Positions 2,347 through 61,839 of a DNA stretch of 64,000 nucleotides are shown here, piece after piece. Position numbers and translations under genes: made by a program. The notes under the pieces are model-generated. The model saw only the letters and a list, made by a program, of their open reading frames with translations, did not search any database and was not told the DNA's origin. The stretch comes from a virus: the IMG/VR virus record IMGVR_UViG_3300044684_000278, positions 32,001-96,000 of that record. One strand, written 5' to 3'. Each line of letters starts with the position of its first letter. Within the stretch, counting starts at the first letter, position 1.

Positions 2347-4098
2347 TTACTTGATGGCATGACCACTGCGTCCTACCTTATAGGTACGCTTGCCATCAAA
2401 GACAATGACCTGGTCTCTTTGCTGGTAGAGAGGATTAAAGCCAGTGAATTTGGCTCCGGCCACACCAATAAAGAAAGCCTTGTCCGAATAGGCAGAGCAG
2501 TGATCCTCTGCATCCGTGATGACGATGGCATTGCGTTTATTGGCTTCTATTCTCTGGATCACCCTGCCGGTGGTGGTTCCACCTCCTCCACGGATATTGA
2601 GAATGTCCACGATCTGGTTACCTTCATACTTCACATGATCCTGGAAGGAATACACTTCGTTGAGCATGTTCAGCTCCTTCATCTTAAAGGCAAACGCCTT
2701 GGCAAATAAAAGCTTGGTCATATACCTTCCGTCCTGTCCTTGTACCCCGCAGGATTGCTCCATGGATCCTGAAGCATCAATGAACAGGTCGATCTTACCC
2801 ATCTTCCTGATCTCCTTCACCAGTATATCCTCTGTGAATATTTTACGCAGTACAGGATGCAGTAGTGTGATGTCCTCCAGCCCGTCAAGGGTACCAGCAT
2901 CAAAAATACTCTCAAAGTAAGGCTTGTCCTTGGCAGAGAAGTAAGAGTTGGACTGGTCCAGCAGGTTCTTGATCTTGCTCTTGATAGCATTCAGGTTAAG
3001 CCCTACACTTCTCAGTTCCTGCTCCACCTTCTCCAGGTATTGCCGGTTGGTCTTTTCTGCTGCACGGTTGGCTTCTCCCCATCGGTCAGAGGCCAGCTCC
3101 TTCCACATATCATCCATCTGCTTTTCACTCATCACAGCTCCCAGCATTTCCACGGTCTTGCGTGCATCTTCCAGCACCTCTTCCAGAATCTGCTTGGACC
3201 CTTTGACCTTGTCAAAGCGTTCCATCAGGGTCTTCAGGTGAGCATTCTCACTCTGACGGGTGTTACCCGTACCAGCCTGATTGCCTCCGCCTGTCTGGGA
3301 ATCACTGTGATCCTTTTCCTGCTCCTGCTCATCATCACCTCCTCCGCCATTGCCTTGCGGATCTTCATCATCCTCATCCTCATCCTGACCTCCCTGGGAA
3401 GGTTGATTGCCGGGATTTCCCTGCTGCCCATGATCCTGAGGATCCTGTGGTTGTGGTTGGGGGTTAGGCTGACCTTTTCCAGGACCCTTTCCACCCATTC
3501 CTTTCTGCTGCTTCTGGTCCTGGGGGTCCTTTCCCTGCAGGTTGTTCATCAGGTCATCAAATGCCTGCTTGTCCTCCTGCTGCAGCATGGCCAGGTTCAT
3601 CAGGTAATACTGTATCATGTTCCTGGTATAGACCATGGATTTGATATTGTTCTGACGGGTGATCACCTTGGCAATAGGGTTGTTGGACTTTTCAATCATA
3701 TGGTAGCGGAACTTGTTCTTCTCGGTCCGCTCCTCAAACTTGAGATCCTGGATGTCCTCATAGTTGATATTGTAAATATCATTGAGCACTTCCTTGGGAA
3801 ACTTCTGATAGATCTTCATCATCTCCTCAGTCAGTGTCTGTGGACTCACCAGCTTTTTGTTCATTTTCTCAGCCATCTGCTGTATCCGCTGGTGGGATAC
3901 AGGTGTCTGGATATAGTTATCTACTGCTTTTTGCAGTGCCCGTTCATCCAGGGAATGCAGGTAGGGCTTGATGATCTCACCCCTTACATTGTACTGCACG
4001 TTGGAGAAGAGACGGGGCCTGTTCTCAAAGCCCAGTTCCCCTCTCTTTGCCTTTTCCAGGATGGTATAAGGATTTTTGAATTGTCTCTTCTTGCTCAT
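2347..4098 (-). CDS. vWA (MIDAS) domain protein, partner of MoxR-type AAA+ ATPase (pair 1)
   Basis: DASGSM MIDAS, GGGGT and ITDAE motifs; central Gln/Gly/Asp low-complexity linker. Confidence 0.85.
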   Translation of the reverse strand: MSKKRQFKNPYTILEKAKRGELGFENRPRLFSNVQYNVRGEIIKPYLHSLDERALQKAVDNYIQTPVSHQRIQQMAEKMNKKLVSPQTLTEEMMKIYQKFPKEVLNDIYNINYEDIQDLKFEERTEKNKFRYHMIEKSNNPIAKVITRQNNIKSMVYTRNMIQYYLMNLAMLQQEDKQAFDDLMNNLQGKDPQDQKQQKGMGGKGPGKGQPNPQPQPQDPQDHGQQGNPGNQPSQGGQDEDEDDEDPQGNGGGGDDEQEQEKDHSDSQTGGGNQAGTGNTRQSENAHLKTLMERFDKVKGSKQILEEVLEDARKTVEMLGAVMSEKQMDDMWKELASDRWGEANRAAEKTNRQYLEKVEQELRSVGLNLNAIKSKIKNLLDQSNSYFSAKDKPYFESIFDAGTLDGLEDITLLHPVLRKIFTEDILVKEIRKMGKIDLFIDASGSMEQSCGVQGQDGRYMTKLLFAKAFAFKMKELNMLNEVYSFQDHVKYEGNQIVDILNIRGGGGTTTGRVIQRIEANKRNAIVITDAEDHCSAYSDKAFFIGVAGAKFTGFNPLYQQRDQVIVFDGKRTYKVGRSGHAIK

Positions 4099-17263: not shown

Positions 17264-17448
17264 TAGTCAGGATACTGGATAACAGCTTGTTAATATCTAC
17301 AAAATGTGAGCCAAACTCATCCATTATTCTGTAGATTTTTTCTTTAGGGAAAACCACTTAACTTGGACTACAAGTAATACATTTGTAGAAATTCAGGCTT
17401 CCAGGATATAACGTATCCCAGAAACCCTTTACTTTGTCCAGCAGAATT

Positions 17449-25042: not shown

Positions 25043-25077
25043 GTGTAGTAAGCCCGGATCACTCCGGGACTTAAAGC

Positions 25078-39483: not shown

Positions 39484-39775
39484 GTTTTGAATTGATGTAT
39501 AAAAGTGTGAATAATAGGTTACAGTAGTTGATTATCAGGGGTAGAGTTACAGACATGTTTAAAAAAACCGGGAAGGATTGCTCCCGCCCGGTCCATCAAC
39601 ATAAACACATAAAACAACTCTTTATATCTTCCTAATGGTATAGCCAAACTTGCTGAGCAAGCTGTTGACATTTTCCAGTGTAGGCAGGGACATGCTCTGA
39701 AGTGCAGAACAAATTCCACGGATAAGTACGGATTCTTTCACCTTCTGATCCTTGTCAGAATGGGTGATAGTGTGA

Positions 39776-41208: not shown

Positions 41209-41252
41209 ATGTAGTAAGAGCCAGAAGTTAATCCGGCTCTTAAATAAGTTAA

Positions 41253-51009: not shown

Positions 51010-51139
51010 GGTCGGTTTATTGTGGATGGTTTAAAAATCTATTCATGACTAATCTGCTGATGGGTGATACATGATCCCACCAGCAGATTTAGTTTACTGA
51101 TTGATGATAATGACTTGACTGAAAAAAGCAAATGGACTA

Positions 51140-51442
51140 TTATATAGTCCAGATGCTTTTACGTTTAGAAGGATCCTGAATCCAGTAAGCCTGGTCACGC
51201 TCTGACCATTGAAGCTGCATTCCGGGCTTCACACGCAGTGTTTCATCATCAACGGGCTCAATGACCTCATCCATGGTCTTCTGGAAGAATGTTACGATTC
51301 TGCCATCAGACAGTTTAGCCTTGAAGCCCACGTTGCCATTCTGGAATGGCTGAGCTTTAACATCAGATACTTTGAATGATAGGTCTGCCAGTTGTTTCAG
51401 AGCTTCTGCTCCAGCTGCTTTAAGAAATTCTAATGCTTTCAT
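51140..51442 (-). CDS. Hypothetical protein, first gene of the minus-strand block
   Basis: Likely start MKALEF. Confidence 0.6.
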   Translation of the reverse strand: MKALEFLKAAGAEALKQLADLSFKVSDVKAQPFQNGNVGFKAKLSDGRIVTFFQKTMDEVIEPVDDETLRVKPGMQLQWSERDQAYWIQDPSKRKSIWTI

Positions 51443-51775
51443 TTTTAAGATTTTTAAGATTATGATGGGGGTAACCCCCTTGCCAGGATGAAGGCGGGGG
51501 TGGTTTGGTGGGCACTCCATCACACATCACAACACAGATCCAAAAAATATGGGGGAAAAAAATTTGCAGAAGTGGTTTCACTATGCCTATATTAGCCTAT
51601 GTCGGACGGCAATTCACAACTCTTGACTTCTTACCAGACCCGGAGAGATATAACTTCACCGGGTTTCTTTTTTAAGCAAATCCCCTTATCTCCCAGGCTT
51701 TAACACGTAAAGTATTTACCAGATCCCGTATATTTAACCTTCATCACTTTCTTTGCACCCATAAACCAACGTACT

Positions 51776-52414
51776 ATGAACAAAGTGAGCAAGGACTACT
51801 ATGCTCTGAATCTGACAGACAAGCAGACAGACCGTCTGATCACAAAAGTAGAAGCAGACATCACAATACTCATGCAGGAGATCTCCACAAAGACCGGCCC
51901 ACTCCGGGAGGCAGAGCAGTATTACATGGAATTAAAGCGGGAACATGATGCTATCCAGGATGAGCTCAATGACTCCAAATCCTTACTGGAGGCTCTGACC
52001 CGGTTCAAGACCAATGCCAGGGGAAGTAAGGAGATCCGGGTGTTGAGAACTACTTCCGTGACGGAGAGCAAAGAGAAAAAACGCAGGCATTTCAAGTGGA
52101 TCCAGATGGCTATAGAAGTGCTGACCAAAGAAGACAAGTACATGAGCCATGAAGAGCTCTGGAAGAAAATGCTCACATCCTTCCCGGAGATTGAGAAAGC
52201 CTTTAACGGGGACAAGCAGAAACTCAACCAGGTAAAGAACACCACCTTCCATAATTTCAACAGGGCCTGTGAGGAATCCAGGAAGAATAACTCCGGGAAG
52301 CTAATTGACTACCAGAAGAAGATCGGACTCTTTGGCTGGACCCTGGATAACCTGGCTCCGGATCCCCAGCACATTAAAGAGTTCATGCACGGAGGTATGA
52401 GAGCAGCCGTGTAA
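51776..52414 (+). CDS. Coiled-coil + probable winged-helix protein
   Basis: N-terminal heptads; WIQMAIEVL...MSHEELW. Confidence 0.65.
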   Translation: MNKVSKDYYALNLTDKQTDRLITKVEADITILMQEISTKTGPLREAEQYYMELKREHDAIQDELNDSKSLLEALTRFKTNARGSKEIRVLRTTSVTESKEKKRRHFKWIQMAIEVLTKEDKYMSHEELWKKMLTSFPEIEKAFNGDKQKLNQVKNTTFHNFNRACEESRKNNSGKLIDYQKKIGLFGWTLDNLAPDPQHIKEFMHGGMRAAV

Positions 52415-52433
52415 AAAATACTTTGCAGTTCCT

Positions 52434-52459
52434 AAACTTTTTAGTATATTATTAGTAGG
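52434..52459 (+). promoter_or_regulatory. Putative phage promoter AAACTTT-N3-GTATATTAT-N2-GTAGG
   Basis: Near-identical to 54940-54967 and 63-78. Confidence 0.55.
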
Positions 52460-52520
52460 ATCAGTAAGCAATGGAGCTTCTGATTATTGCAGCAGGAACT
52501 GGCTAAGCAGTTTACACGTT

Positions 52521-53012
52521 ATGAAAACTACAGAATTAACAGGATACCGTATCCTGTCTTTCGTAGATCCACAATCAGGATCTTCTGAGAATATCTCAAA
52601 CTTTCGGCCTTATGCAATCCAAAGGGATTCAGATGGTGAGATCTTCACAATAGGTGACAGGTTCATTAACAAAAATGTGAAGCCTGGAACAAAGGCTCCT
52701 CATGGAGAGATTACCGGGTTTGAACTGCTGGAAGGCACAGTATTCATTAGACATACCTGGTCAGGAATAGGATTTTCTTTGAACAGTATAGAAAAAGACA
52801 TCACCCTTCCCTCCAGGTTTCAGATTAATGACAAGGTTGTCTTTATCATACAGGGAAAGGATTCCAATTTTGGCTGTTTTGATGCAGTAGTAAAAGGGGT
52901 TCATTTCTATAAAGGAAAAGTAAAGTATGACCTGGAACTGCAGTTTGGACAAGACGATTTCACCAGGATCTATAATATTGATTCCTGTTTTGTGGAGCCT
53001 ATAAAAAATTAA
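52521..53012 (+). CDS. Hypothetical two-module protein
   Basis: 163-aa ORF. Confidence 0.6.
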   Translation: MKTTELTGYRILSFVDPQSGSSENISNFRPYAIQRDSDGEIFTIGDRFINKNVKPGTKAPHGEITGFELLEGTVFIRHTWSGIGFSLNSIEKDITLPSRFQINDKVVFIIQGKDSNFGCFDAVVKGVHFYKGKVKYDLELQFGQDDFTRIYNIDSCFVEPIKN

Positions 53013-53055
53013 TACAGTCCCTGGAATTTTCTAAAATAATTAGCATATTTGCATC

Positions 53056-53133
53056 ATGATTTTTAACAACCCATTTCATCAGCAGCCCAACTTCTGGAAT
53101 CCCTTCCAGGGGCCTGGAGATGGTATGTGGTAA
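53056..53133 (+). CDS. Leader peptide MIFNNPFHQQPNFWNPFQGPGDGMW of a putative tRNA-operon attenuator
   Basis: ATG 53056 to TAA 53133; 14 of 25 codons are N/P/Q/H/W; preceded by CATATTTG (-7-like). Confidence 0.75.
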   Translation: MIFNNPFHQQPNFWNPFQGPGDGMW

Positions 53134-53161
53134 TCAAGACAAATAAACATATTCATTAACT

Positions 53162-53196
53162 GAGCTCCTGGAATGCAAACCCCCAGGAGCTTTTTT
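53162..53196 (+). terminator. Attenuator terminator hairpin upstream of the tRNA cluster
   Basis: GAGCTCCTGG / CCAGGAGCTT followed by T-run. Confidence 0.85.
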
Positions 53197-53201
53197 ATTT
53201 T

Positions 53202-53274
53202 CTGGATGTAGTGAAGTTGGTATCATGCCTGGTTTGGGACCAGGAGACCGCAAGTTCGAGTCTTGCCATCCAGA
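53202..53274 (+). tRNA. tRNA-Pro(UGG)
   Basis: Cloverleaf; CCTGG-TTTGGGA-CCAGG. Confidence 0.92.
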
Positions 53275-53281
53275 CTATTAC

Positions 53282-53356
53282 GGGACCTTAGCTCAGAGGT
53301 AGAGCAGCACCCTGTTAAGGTGATGGTCACAGGTTCAATCCCTGTAGGTCCCGCCA
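53282..53356 (+). tRNA. tRNA-Asn(GUU)
   Basis: Cloverleaf; loop CTGTTAA; encoded CCA. Confidence 0.93.
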
Positions 53357-53359
53357 TAT

Positions 53360-53431
53360 TTTCCTGTAGTGTAGCTGGCAACACAAGAGATTTTGGCTCT
53401 CTTATCACTGGTTCGAACCCAGTCAGGAAAT
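53360..53431 (+). tRNA. tRNA-Gln(UUG)
   Basis: Cloverleaf; AGAGA-TTTTGGC-TCTCT. Confidence 0.9.
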
Positions 53432-53433
53432 CT

Positions 53434-53509
53434 GTGTCTGTAGCTTAATTGGTAGAGCACTGGTTTGTGGCACCAGCAGGTACGGGTTCAACTCCCGTCA
53501 GACACCCCA
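53434..53509 (+). tRNA. tRNA-His(GUG)
   Basis: Cloverleaf; loop TTGTGGC; C73 plus CCA; no genomic G-1. Confidence 0.92.
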
Positions 53510-53510
53510 T

Positions 53511-53583
53511 ATCCGTGTAGCTCAATTGGTAGAGCAGCGGTCTCCAAAACCGTGTGTTGGTGGTTCGAATCCATCCATGGGTG
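53511..53583 (+). tRNA. tRNA-Trp(CCA)
   Basis: Cloverleaf; loop CTCCAAA. Confidence 0.92.
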
Positions 53584-53588
53584 CATCA

Positions 53589-53659
53589 GCCTTCTTCGTC
53601 CAATGGTAGGACTACGCACTTGTAATGCGTGTATGCTGGTTCGAGTCCGGCAGAAGGCT
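53589..53659 (+). tRNA. tRNA-Thr(UGU)
   Basis: Cloverleaf; ACGCA-CTTGTAA-TGCGT. Confidence 0.92.
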
Positions 53660-53714
53660 CCTTGATTATTCCAGGGACATGTTTTACTTTTACGCCCGTA
53701 AACCTAACGGTCCC

Positions 53715-54164
53715 ATGAAAACGAAAATCATCCTGCTGCTTTCCCTGCTGTTTATCTCCCTGAGTTCTTACTGCCAGCTTTCCAACCTTACAGATCCGAT
53801 CCGTAAAGATGAAGCTTATTGCCGGGCCCTCATGAAAAATGAAAAGGCTGCCTGGGAGGACTATGGTGAATCAGGAAAGACCGTCCATTATTCCTATCCG
53901 GATTACCTGATCACATTTACCTTCATCAAGAACCGGTGCGTTAATGTGCGCATTGACTTCGTGGTGAACGAAGATGTTGTGGATAAAACCATGTATCATT
54001 GGCTTTATGAAAAAAACTATGAGTCAGCCTTTGGCGGAACTTTGTGGGGCAAGATGCTGCCACAGCCTGGAAGATCAGATGCTTCATTTCCAGTAGCCGT
54101 ACAAAAACTGGACAAGTCCTCCTGGTGGCTTTATGACGTGCTGTACTATTCAGACAGTCACTAA
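53715..54164 (+). CDS. Secreted protein (Sec signal), moron-like
   Basis: MKTKIILLLSLLFISLSSYC-Q Bacteroidota-style signal peptide. Confidence 0.7.
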   Translation: MKTKIILLLSLLFISLSSYCQLSNLTDPIRKDEAYCRALMKNEKAAWEDYGESGKTVHYSYPDYLITFTFIKNRCVNVRIDFVVNEDVVDKTMYHWLYEKNYESAFGGTLWGKMLPQPGRSDASFPVAVQKLDKSSWWLYDVLYYSDSH

Positions 54165-54731: not shown

Positions 54732-54967
54732 TCTACAGCAATAACAAATCTTTTAATCTGCTTTTAACCCTACCTACTTAGTAAATAATTTACCAACCTC
54801 ATTTTGTGTTCCCCATAACAATCTCTACAGCATACTTTTGCACTGCCTCGTGAAAACCAGTATTCCTATGGGACTTATAGACACTGTAGAATAAGTAGAG
54901 TTGCAACCTACCTAATTCTCTAATAAATTTGTAGAGTTTAAACTTTATAAGTATATTATAGTGTAGG
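54732..54967. promoter_or_regulatory. Divergent control region with four TCTACA/TGTAGA boxes and a GTATATTAT promoter
   Basis: Boxes at 54732, 54824, 54885, 54930; AAACTTT..GTATATTAT..GTAGG 54940-54967. Confidence 0.55.
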
Positions 54968-55525: not shown

Positions 55526-55681
55526 TGTAGGGTGGTGAAATTGGCAGACACACCGGATTGTCTATCCGGCATTTGATACACAGTGCGTTCTTTAAAAGCT
55601 ATCATCCATTAATATGCATTTGTTGTTTTATTCCCTCTCCCTGTATCAAATATGCTGGTTCGAGTCCAGCCCCTACAGCCA
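55526..55681 (+). ncRNA. tRNA-like RNA with GUC loop and ~80-nt variable arm
   Basis: TGTAGGG/CCCTACA-G-CCA; CCGGA-TTGTCTA-TCCGG; ATTTGATACA/TGTATCAAAT 10-bp stem; GCTGG-TTCGAGT-CCAGC. Confidence 0.75.
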
Positions 55682-55735
55682 AAGCGGATCAAACGTGTAG
55701 TAACCGCAGGAGTCCGGACTCCACTACACTCAAAT

Positions 55736-59607: not shown

Positions 59608-61839
59608 ATGACACCAAACCCAACAACCACCACACCCTACATTACTGTACCTGTTTACGACAATGACGTTAAGATCTGGACCTCAAGAGACTTTCAAACA
59701 AGAGAAGACTATACGGCCTTCGTTAAGAGCGTCTTTAAAGAACCTGGCCTCTATGAGTTTGATGAGACCTCTTTCCTCTTTAATGAGCAGGCCCGCTATT
59801 TTGAACAGCACGGGGTCTACCCAGGCAACCTCTCTCCCTTCAGAAGCAAGGACTTCATCAAGTACTGGGACGATCAGAAAGACAAGTGCAGAAAGGGCGT
59901 TATTTATCAGCATGGAGGAAAGACCTGGTACCTGACCAGGGACTACTACATGTGGCTGAACTTTCTTCCCATCTATGACAAGGAAGAAAAGAAGTTCGGC
60001 TTTGCCAAGGTCCGGGATGCACAGTACCACATGGCTCTTTACGAGCTGCTGGCGGAGCTGCACTACAAGCATTCCTGCATCCTTAAGAAACGTCAGATTG
60101 CCTCCTCTTATTTCCACATTGCCAAACTCCTCAACCAGTACTGGTTTGAGCAGGGTGCCGTCATGAAACTGGGTGCCAGCCTCAAAGATTATATCAATGA
60201 GAAGGGCTCCTGGAAGTTTCTGGACGAGTACCGTAACTTCCTCAACGAACATACGGCCTGGTACCGCCCTAATGAGCCCGACAAGGTCTTATCATGGCAA
60301 CAACGTATCAAAGTAAGGATCGGAGGCCGCGATACCTACAAGGGCTTAAAAAGCGTGTTTACGGGCATGTCCTTTGAGAAGGATGCCACTAATGGTGTAG
60401 GTGGTCCGGTAACCTACTTCTTCCATGAGGAAGCGGGTATCGCACCCAAGATGGACGAGACCTACGGGTATATGCGTCCTGCCATGAAATCCGGTATGAT
60501 TACTACCGGTATGTTCATAGCGGCAGGCTCCGTGGGTGATCTGGACCAGTGCGGTCCCTTGAAAAAATACATCCTGAACCCGGATGCCAACGATTTCTAT
60601 TCAGTAGAGACTGACCTACTGGATGATAAGGGCACGCTGGGCCGATCCGGGCTCTTTATTCCGGAGCAGTGGAGTATGCCTCCTTACATAGATGAATTTG
60701 GCAACAGCCTCGTTAAAGAGGCCCTGGATGCCCTGGATGCTTACTTTGCCCAATGCAAGCGTGATCTTGATCCTGCAGCCTACCAGCTGGAGCTCTCCCA
60801 GCACCCCCGCAACATTGCAGAAGCCTTTGCCTCCCGTAAGGAAGCCCTCTTCCCCATACACCTGGTGAGCCAGCAGCTCAGAAGGATCGAGGAGAAGCAA
60901 TACCCCTGTGAATACCTGGAGCTCTTTGAAACAGAGGGCGGGAAGATAGATGCCAGGGCTTCCCGAAAGATCCCCATCATGGAGTTCCCGATCTCTAAAA
61001 AGACGGAAGACAAAGAAGGCGTGATCTGTGTGTGGGAACGTCCCATGCAGAATGCTCCCTGGGGAACGTACTATGCTTCTGTGGATCCAGTGGGAGAAGG
61101 AAAGACCACAACCTCCGAGTCTCTCTGCTCCATCATCGTTTACAAGAATGCTATTGAAGTCACTAAAGATGAAGGCAACGGAAAAGTCTCCACCTACGTG
61201 GAAGGAGATAAAATAGTAGCCACCTGGTGCGGAAGGTTTGATGACTTAAAGAAAACCCATGAAAGATTGGAGTACATCATCCGCTGGTACAATGCCTGGA
61301 CCCTGGTGGAGAACAACGTCTCCCTGTTCATCCAGTACATGATCTCCAAGCGTATGCAACGCTTCCTGGTGCCCAAGGATCAGATCCTGTTCTTAAAGGA
61401 ACTGGGTTCCAACATGAACGTATACGCGGACTATGGCTGGAAGAATACTGGCACCATGTTCAAGAACCACCTGCTCTCTTATGGCATCCAGTTCATGGAA
61501 GAGGAGCTGGATCATGAATTTGACGAGAATGGAAAGATCCTGAGCACTGTCCGTGGTGTGGAAAGGATCCCTGATCCCATGATCCTCACGGAGGCCGGAG
61601 CCTACCATCACGGCCTCAACGTGGACCGCCTGGTATCCTACTGTTCCCTGGTAGCTTTTGTTCATATACAGCGGGCCAGCCGTGGTATGCAAAAACGTGT
61701 AGAAGTGACCCAGGATAAATTGGAGAATTCCTCTAAAATGAGTAAATTAAATATGAGCCCCTTCCGTCACATTGGAGGCTCTACCTCTACAAACAACAGC
61801 AGCTTTTTCAAGAGAAATCCCTTCAAGAATCTCCGCTAA
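59608..61839 (+). CDS. terL: Terminase large subunit (crAss-like)
   Basis: Walker A-like LKKRQIASS, Walker B FFHEEAG, nuclease SVDPV...VENN...DR; 743 aa. Confidence 0.9.
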   Translation: MTPNPTTTTPYITVPVYDNDVKIWTSRDFQTREDYTAFVKSVFKEPGLYEFDETSFLFNEQARYFEQHGVYPGNLSPFRSKDFIKYWDDQKDKCRKGVIYQHGGKTWYLTRDYYMWLNFLPIYDKEEKKFGFAKVRDAQYHMALYELLAELHYKHSCILKKRQIASSYFHIAKLLNQYWFEQGAVMKLGASLKDYINEKGSWKFLDEYRNFLNEHTAWYRPNEPDKVLSWQQRIKVRIGGRDTYKGLKSVFTGMSFEKDATNGVGGPVTYFFHEEAGIAPKMDETYGYMRPAMKSGMITTGMFIAAGSVGDLDQCGPLKKYILNPDANDFYSVETDLLDDKGTLGRSGLFIPEQWSMPPYIDEFGNSLVKEALDALDAYFAQCKRDLDPAAYQLELSQHPRNIAEAFASRKEALFPIHLVSQQLRRIEEKQYPCEYLELFETEGGKIDARASRKIPIMEFPISKKTEDKEGVICVWERPMQNAPWGTYYASVDPVGEGKTTTSESLCSIIVYKNAIEVTKDEGNGKVSTYVEGDKIVATWCGRFDDLKKTHERLEYIIRWYNAWTLVENNVSLFIQYMISKRMQRFLVPKDQILFLKELGSNMNVYADYGWKNTGTMFKNHLLSYGIQFMEEELDHEFDENGKILSTVRGVERIPDPMILTEAGAYHHGLNVDRLVSYCSLVAFVHIQRASRGMQKRVEVTQDKLENSSKMSKLNMSPFRHIGGSTSTNNSSFFKRNPFKNLR

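Follow-up and report, generated by a model that had tools for sequence, protein, structure and literature searches.

The locus considered here raises the question of whether a phage can make its transfer RNAs (tRNAs) on demand. It lies in a stretch of 64,000 nucleotides (nt), hereafter the window, which comprises bases 32001-96000 of the IMG/VR virus record IMGVR_UViG_3300044684_000278, a record of 136,320 base pairs (bp) with direct terminal repeats that is estimated to be complete. The genome encodes nine tRNAs in total, namely a six-gene array (Pro, Asn, Gln, His, Trp and Thr) and the singletons Met, Ile and Ser. Ahead of the array stands a cassette comprised of a promoter-like box, a short open reading frame (ORF) rich in codons for the amino acids of the array, and an intrinsic terminator. 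We read this cassette as a ribosome-mediated (leader-peptide) transcription attenuator gating the phage tRNA operon, a reading to which we assign a probability of roughly 0.58. What the analysis shows directly is the anatomy of the cassette, the fact that it exceeds chance statistically and its persistence in one diverged relative. It has long been asked why phages carry tRNA genes: the function of phage tRNAs is described as long unclear (PMC10264068), and there are reports that phage tRNAs can evade retron and PARIS defences, which act on host tRNAs (PMC11555353, PMC11464382).

The leader cassette and its codon content

The cassette and the array have the following components, in window coordinates:

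53044-53051, plus strand: candidate -7-like promoter box CATATTTG, matching 7 of the 8 positions of TAnnTTTG, 4 nt upstream of the ATG
53056-53133, plus strand: leader ORF, an ATG and 25 codons followed by TAA, MIFNNPFHQQPNFWNPFQGPGDGMW
53059-53094, plus strand: control codons 2-13 (I F N N P F H Q Q P N F), as predicted by sliding-footprint folding
53057-53136, plus strand: predicted helix 1:2 (anti-antiterminator), 5' strand 53057-53099 and 3' strand 53104-53136
53104-53173, plus strand: predicted antiterminator 2:3, UUCCAGGGGC (53104-53113) with GCUCCUGGAA (53164-53173), extended by 53114-53128 with 53147-53162
53162-53201, plus strand: intrinsic terminator 3:4, with a 10-bp stem, an 11-nt loop and -16.5 kcal/mol, then TTTTTTATTTT
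53202-53275, plus strand: tRNA-Pro (UGG), by ARAGORN and RF00005
53282-53356, plus strand: tRNA-Asn (GUU), by ARAGORN and RF00005
53360-53432, plus strand: tRNA-Gln (UUG), by ARAGORN and RF00005
53434-53509, plus strand: tRNA-His (GUG), by ARAGORN and RF00005
53511-53584, plus strand: tRNA-Trp (CCA), by ARAGORN and RF00005
53589-53661, plus strand: tRNA-Thr (UGU), by ARAGORN and RF00005

The tRNA genes were called by ARAGORN, and all six of the array score 58-68 bits on the Rfam family RF00005. The terminator forms by pairing of GAGCUCCUGG (53162-53171) with CCAGGAGCUU (53183-53192); its T-run TTTTTTATTTT extends to 53201 and the array begins at 53202; the terminator sits 5 nt before tRNA-Pro. 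The hairpin at 53162-53192 is not listed by a consensus terminator scan, presumably because the rule of that scan accepts loops of 3-8 nt. A scan for promoter-like sites lists a sigma-70-like site at 53009-53037 and none between 53037 and the tRNAs. Since the array starts at this 5-nt distance from the T-run and no promoter-like site lies in that interval, every array transcript must cross the terminator. The box at 53044-53051 resembles TAnnTTTG, which we take to be a -7-like promoter motif, and it is this motif match that suggests a promoter here and a leaderless start of the ORF.

The leader ORF devotes 14 of its 25 codons to array amino acids (N4, P4, Q3, W2, H1), alongside four to Phe. 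The same six amino acids account for 24% of the codons in the long ORFs of the phage, or 33% with Phe and Tyr added. When all short ATG-initiated ORFs of 15-45 codons in the six frames of the whole genome are considered, the leader's share of array amino acids is reached by two out of 910, the leader itself among them; the leader's stop codon was included in the denominator, and the test is therefore conservative. At least 14 matches to the window's six tRNAs are seen in 15 of 20000 stop-free dinucleotide shuffles of the leader ORF, so that base composition and hairpin-forming words do not explain the match. A G-poor control region, or base composition generally, was also considered as the cause of the codon bias and ruled out by stop-free mono- and dinucleotide shuffles. 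Random sets of six amino acids fit the leader equally well in 1286 out of 38760 cases. The codon match is significant under all four null models.

The predicted helices are mutually exclusive, with segments 1 and 2 being the two strands of helix 1:2 and segments 3 and 4 the arms of the terminator. Helix 1:2 has a core of CUGGAA (53094-53099) with UUCCAG (53104-53109), extends outward to 53057 and 53136 and spans the whole ORF; the leader part folded alone gives -27.6 kcal/mol. The unconstrained fold of 53056-53200 combines 1:2 with the terminator at -44.6 kcal/mol (z = -3.87; 0 of 200 shuffles as good). Masking the first 36-48 nt of a transcript that ends before segment 4 gives the extended antiterminator as the predicted fold, with an energy between -25.4 and -25.8 kcal/mol (-25.4 kcal/mol for a mask of 42 nt). 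We further modelled the ribosome as a sliding 30-nt footprint held single-stranded and read out the probability (P) that segment 3 is paired, which is 1.00 for A-site codons 2-12, 0.79 for codon 13 and 0.25-0.51 for codons 14-17. As segment 3 is fully paired only for A-site codons 2-12, the predicted control window is I F N N P F H Q Q P N. When the upstream 105 nt are shuffled with dinucleotides preserved, 12 of 1000 sequences attain the energy of the 2:3 duplex, and among 113 terminator-like hairpins genome-wide the one here has the strongest upstream competitor per arm nucleotide (-1.82 versus -1.48 for the next). The second-ranked terminator (39569-39590), considered as a further attenuator, was ruled out as an ordinary end-of-gene terminator.

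Much of this anatomy had been proposed in a first-pass annotation of the same DNA. The 25-codon ORF at 53056-53133 with 14 of 25 array codons is present as it claimed, as is the -7-like box at 53044-53051, at 7 of 8 motif positions; the intrinsic terminator that it placed 5 nt before six tRNAs is confirmed by the hairpin energy (-16.5 kcal/mol) and by ARAGORN and RF00005; and the 1:2, 2:3 (10 bp) and 3:4 pairings that it described as mutually exclusive are all recovered by folding. The enrichment for array codons on which it built exceeds chance under the four null models. Folding with and without masking, which it had put forward as a check, agrees with its proposal in that a footprint over codons 2-12 is predicted to switch the pre-terminator transcript to the antiterminator.

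Certain further occurrences of the motifs around the leader can be recorded here. Five of the 11 intergenic TAnnTTTG sites continue as TTTGTAGA, unlike TTTGCATCA at the leader; they lie at 17378-17389 and 54924-54935 of the window (both plus strand) and at genome positions 116009, 26557 and 16676, and TTTGTAGA may represent an extended phage promoter consensus. CTGGAAT occurs a third time at 53021-53028 of the window (plus strand), ahead of the promoter-like box. This copy, which the relative described below lacks, precedes segment 1 by about 72 nt, and segment 1 precedes segment 3 by about 74 nt.

A diverged copy in a related phage

The relative, locus L019, lies in a 136,295-bp record whose TerL is 100% identical to that of the window. 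The two phages are 98.6-99.2% identical on both sides of a mosaic block (about 52454-53278 of the window versus 2854-3671 of L019), and 88.7% identical over 51437-52454. A second unaligned gap between them corresponds to 51020-51437 of the window. Within the block, the gene at 52521-53012, which codes for a protein of 163 amino acids with no Pfam or PHROG match, faces unrelated, unalignable sequence in L019. Homology resumes at 53047, inside the -7-like box, at 73.5% identity, and the L019 box at the same place, TAGATTTG, agrees with TAnnTTTG at 8 of 8 positions. The stretch running from the box up to the ATG is identical in 10 of 12 columns, compared with 63 of 173 for the 144 nt upstream. 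The leader ORF (57 of 84 columns identical) and tRNA-Pro (51 of 74) have diverged to a similar extent.

The L019 leader has 26 codons, MILTTTYCHQHPFFWNQIQGPGNSVW, and its ATG, TAA and frame are kept through indels of -1 and +4 (net +3 nt). Twelve of the 25 aligned residues differ between the two leaders, and the best-kept part is the C-terminal half (FWN..QGPG...W), where 53091-53118 has 24 identical columns out of 28. Read from an in-frame ATG that L019 has 10 codons further upstream, its leader would be 36 codons long (3236-3346) and overlap the -7-like box; the window has no equivalent. The three helices 1:2, 2:3 and 3:4 are predicted at matching positions of L019, with -31.7, -30.1 and -20.8 kcal/mol. 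One terminator pair changes from U-A in the window to C-G in L019, a compensatory change that also turns a G-U pair of 2:3 into G-C. The L019 antiterminator is reached by none of 1000 shuffles, and in the footprint model its P(segment 3 paired) is 0.98-0.99 at A-site codons 2-13; past the control codons the value falls to 0.25-0.55 across the two phages. The trp/his-type attenuator architecture of the first-pass annotation stands, being kept in L019 with the one compensatory terminator change. Its proposed conservation check has a divided outcome: the ORF and all helices are retained in this sole relative, and compensatory changes amount to just 1 of 26 pairs.

The array of L019 runs Pro-Phe-Tyr-Asn-Gln-His-Trp-Thr, its eight tRNAs including Phe and Tyr in addition to the six of the window. 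All eight of these amino acids occur in the L019 leader and make up 17 of its 26 codons, a match to its own eight tRNAs that is reached by 135 of 125970 random sets and by 4 of 20000 stop-free dinucleotide shuffles. The control region of L019 shows eight new residues, seven by substitution and one by insertion (L, T, T, T, Y, C, H, F), six of which are array amino acids. Lys (7.8%) and Leu (8.3%), the phage's commonest amino acids, are absent from the window leader and represented by a single Leu in that of L019. The peptide sequence of the leader drifts with its codon class kept, a pattern that fits a codon sensor better than a functional peptide.

Proposed switching and competing explanations

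From these features we infer the translation of the ORF, the transcription start, the stalling of the ribosome and the physiological trigger in the following scheme. Transcription would enter the leader ORF from the -7-like box or from the upstream gene. With smooth reading of the ORF, or without any, the long helix 1:2 would form behind the ribosome; segment 3 would be freed to pair with segment 4, and RNA polymerase would halt at the T-run 5 nt before tRNA-Pro. A ribosome lingering at codons 2-12 (F N N P F H Q Q P N) would cover the 5' strand of 1:2; segment 2 would then pair with segment 3, no terminator would form, and the six tRNAs, and maybe the downstream gene too, would be transcribed. 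The new tRNAs would speed decoding and close the switch, constituting a negative feedback. A possible trigger would be a shortage of those tRNAs arising from host tRNA decay, cleavage, or the codon demand of the phage.

That the switch senses a shortage of the encoded tRNAs specifically is plausible, although we would stop somewhat short of even odds on it. Slightly more tentative still is a broader picture, in which the cassette would be a self-contained, ribosome-read tRNA-supply circuit whose multi-amino-acid leader signals slow decoding of exactly those codon families that the following tRNAs serve. Degradation of host tRNAs, their cleavage by anticodon nucleases or a phage demand that outruns them would open the terminator, and accumulation of phage tRNAs would close it again; the promoter, leader, terminator and first tRNA would form an exchangeable module passed between phages, and the principle might be widespread among large phages. 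The mosaic block shared with L019 suggests that these four elements may move as one. The link to anticodon-nuclease defence is pure conjecture.

A number of observations weigh against an attenuator, and three other explanations were considered. The hairpin might be a plain leaky terminator or insulator, or one overridden on schedule by a phage antitermination factor, with the ORF and the 2:3 pairing incidental. Such an account would accommodate a promoter that is a motif match only, since the box agrees at 7 of 8 positions without a clear -33 element and intergenic DNA, 11% of the genome, holds 11 of the 57 TAnnTTTG sites, which is only a mild enrichment. The cassette is represented by two exemplars only, because of which covariation rests on a single compensatory pair out of the 26 in the consensus; segments 2 and 4 each belong to a CCAGG type that recurs locally; and the control region taken alone shows a modest codon excess (206 of 20000 shuffles in the window, 1084 of 20000 in L019). 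By raw duplex energy, 11 of the 112 other hairpins equal or exceed the upstream competitor found here, all of them with arms of 15-24 nt. At equilibrium and without a ribosome, the transcript ending before segment 4 is predicted to adopt the antiterminator with P = 0.97 in L019 and 0.58 in the window. As the L019 equilibrium favours the antiterminator without a ribosome, the off state must depend on kinetic trapping, with 1:2 forming first in the course of transcription. A plain terminator would nonetheless have to leave to coincidence that the frame, start and stop of the ORF are kept at about 68% identity with compensating indels, that the whole-ORF codon match is reached by just 15 (window) and 4 (L019) of 20000 shuffles and the antiterminator by 12 and 0 of 1000, that the upstream competitor ranks first of 113 per arm nucleotide, and that conservation begins exactly at the promoter box and not at the upstream gene; we regard it as unlikely.

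The fit of the window leader to its own array likewise has its weaknesses. It has four Phe codons, with no tRNA-Phe in the array, and no Thr codon, though a tRNA-Thr is present; moreover, its fit to its own six tRNAs is poorer than that to the eight of L019 (18 of 25 codons; 1752 of 125970 random sets), which is a further point for a plain terminator. The first-pass annotation had looked to co-variation of leader codons with tRNA content, and this was not borne out: since the window leader fits the L019 array better, keeps Phe and has no Thr, the tracking of array content by leader codons between the two phages is unsupported. Its caveat about Phe is explained in part by the tRNA-Phe and tRNA-Tyr within the L019 array, and persists in that the window still has no tRNA-Phe. 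The simplest account would be that the window cassette derives from, or formerly was, an array with tRNA-Phe; the mosaic boundary falls right before tRNA-Asn and is compatible with exchange or deletion. The fit is, in addition, by amino acid and loose by codon, several leader codons being wobble rather than Watson-Crick matches. Thus, every Gln codon in the leader is CAG versus a tRNA anticodon UUG, CAG being the phage's usual Gln codon (79%); the Pro codons are CCC, CCC, CCT and CCA versus the anticodon UGG; and the Thr codons of the L019 leader are ACC, ACT and ACA versus the anticodon UGU. These mismatches with the array anticodons, along with the want of a clean co-variation and the structural sufficiency of a stall at any of codons 2-12, would suit a switch that works but gauges translation generally, reporting overall ribosome traffic or coupling (as under host shut-off or inhibitors) and not particular tRNAs. 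We consider such a general gauge rather improbable, given that the amino-acid match is significant in both the window and L019, that six of the eight new control-region residues of L019 fall within the array set, and that Lys and Leu are nearly absent from both leaders despite being the phage's commonest amino acids. Finally, the ORF could be a small independent gene, for a micropeptide or a small RNA, that has its own promoter-like box and terminator and merely stands in front of the array. The strong conservation of its C-terminal half (24 of 28 columns, 53091-53118) would favour this; that conserved part, however, coincides with segments 1 and 2, and RNA pairing therefore explains it. With 12 of 25 aligned residues differing between the phages, and the array having no other route to transcription, an independent gene seems very improbable.

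If the attenuator reading is true, tRNAs would be made in this phage on demand and not constitutively, and the codons of the leader would reveal which tRNA species the phage monitors, turning the question of why phages carry such genes into one that reporters can test. Yanofsky-type attenuation would be extended from amino-acid supply to tRNA supply, in a compact part of about 150 nt that senses decoding speed for several codon families simultaneously.

Genomic setting and known systems

The gene that follows the array in the same orientation is the remaining feature of the neighborhood:

53715-54164, plus strand: downstream gene coding for 149 amino acids with a signal-peptide-like N-terminus

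In a 179-residue reading it has no Pfam or PHROG match; one distant homologue of the protein is known (P0003). Terminator-like hairpins in the interval between the array and this gene number just two, both weak and ranked low (5-6 pairs; 53643-53660 and 53659-53677), and the array and the gene may be co-transcribed. As the gene may share the transcript, the switch may gate it too.

The singleton tRNAs were considered for similar leaders and rejected: Met, Ile and Ser follow protein genes and have no such ORF. Each of them is preceded by a GC-rich hairpin without a T-run (Ile 41209-41245, minus strand; Ser 25043-25075, minus strand; Met 55695-55735, plus strand), followed by (T)ACTACA(C/T) ending 0-6 nt before the 5' end of the tRNA, a motif that may serve in processing or as a phage-specific signal. 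A 153-nt tRNA-like RNA (55526-55678, plus strand) with a long internal insert precedes tRNA-Met (55736) by about 57 nt; it scores 39 bits on RF00005 (cut-off 29) and was missed by the gathering-mode scan of the whole window. The record of L019 has the same 153-nt element and one of 112 nt (G004:1560-1671).

TerL (59608-61839) and the portal protein match PHROG head-and-packaging families. The TerL matches in GenBank by tblastn are at most 25% identical and come mainly from crAss-like (Crassvirales), Bacteroides, Flavobacterium, Cellulophaga and Azobacteroides phages, which makes a Bacteroidota host likely. The DNA runs containing the sequence are labelled as soil and rhizosphere metagenomes, and no RNA run was found to contain it. 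Four DNA runs gave no new variants; apart from the probable source contig, they contributed nothing but short tRNA-Trp-like pieces from other organisms.

Further relatives were sought by several routes. A TerL search of IMG/VR returned 21 loci, with the array in L019 only, a single tRNA-Asp at one locus and no tRNA at 19; the whole records of three TerL relatives have 0, 1 and 0 tRNAs. Other IMG/VR searches gave no relatives with the upstream protein and no matches with a 41-mer of tRNA-Pro; the leader core, a 25-mer of tRNA-Gln, the stop/spacer pattern and the downstream protein each recovered the contig of L019 only; and the T-run/tRNA junction recovered L019 and two unrelated coding-region matches without tRNAs. 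Two scans of genome contigs gave 0 and 0 matches, and comparison with GenBank phages at the DNA level gave only generic tRNA matches. A metagenome scan produced 28 loci, none of them homologous; five have tRNAs (1, 1, 1, 1 and 44 genes), in no case adjoining the match. The last of these is a chance pattern match, the unrelated 13,863-bp contig L039, with its 44 tRNA genes in about 6 kb; none of its 8 tRNA blocks is preceded by an ORF in which at least half of the codons match. In the crAss-like phage cr111_1, 0 of 6 tRNA blocks have a codon-matched upstream ORF; its blocks directly follow protein genes, and it was rejected as an analogue.

Among known RNA families, an Rfam scan at the gathering score finds no match in the leader, and the only families touching 52950-53210 at E <= 1 are His_leader (RF00514) and PyrG_leader (RF02371). 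Membership in either was rejected, the scores being 22.3 bits against a cut-off of 49 (E = 0.11) and 23.7 bits against a cut-off of 65, respectively; both families are, like the cassette, terminator/antiterminator leaders, and the resemblance is architectural only. A T-box riboswitch was likewise rejected, with no match at E <= 1 in 52950-53210 and none at the gathering score in the window. By its predicted folds, the cassette is structurally a Yanofsky-type attenuator outside every curated Rfam family.

Attenuators of this type that respond to more than one amino acid are known from enterobacteria, namely the leaders of thr (Thr and Ile) and ilvGMEDA (Ile, Leu and Val), alongside the trpL, hisL and pheL leaders. 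The last of these appears in PMC3082878. The cassette shares with them a short ORF rich in regulatory codons, alternative 1:2, 2:3 and 3:4 helices, a terminator just before the first regulated gene and, with the multivalent ones, the representation of more than one sensed amino acid. It differs in regulating tRNAs and not biosynthetic enzymes, in representing five to eight amino acids without a long run of a single codon, and in having its stop codon after segment 2 instead of between segments 1 and 2. It is, moreover, located in a phage with a probable Bacteroidota host, has no Shine-Dalgarno sequence and possibly a leaderless start, and its output would relieve a shortage of tRNA, not of amino acid. 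The pheST operon of E. coli, with its pheM leader, subjects phenylalanyl-tRNA synthetase to attenuation. There too a leader-peptide attenuator sets a component of the translation apparatus by the supply of charged tRNA, but that system is a cellular one, has a synthetase as its target and responds to a single amino acid. T-box riboswitches are comparable as terminator/antiterminator leaders that answer to tRNA status; they differ in binding uncharged tRNA directly, via a specifier codon and the T-box sequence, and have no ORF.

The first-pass annotation knew of no such attenuator for tRNA genes, and our literature search, over titles and the opening parts of abstracts and with some 1.7 million PubMed Central articles outside its reach, similarly found, among the matches listed, no published leader-peptide attenuation of tRNA genes. 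The nearest published case found there is the trn operon of Anabaena PCC 7120, whose accessory tRNAs are described as silent by default and induced under translational stress (PMC8421152; PMC10272220), with the repressor TrcR in control according to the 2023 paper of these two. The main texts of both contain no word beginning with attenuat-, leader or terminator. Like the array of the window as proposed here, the trn operon is an inducible tRNA array; unlike it, as far as these texts describe it, it is controlled by a repressor.

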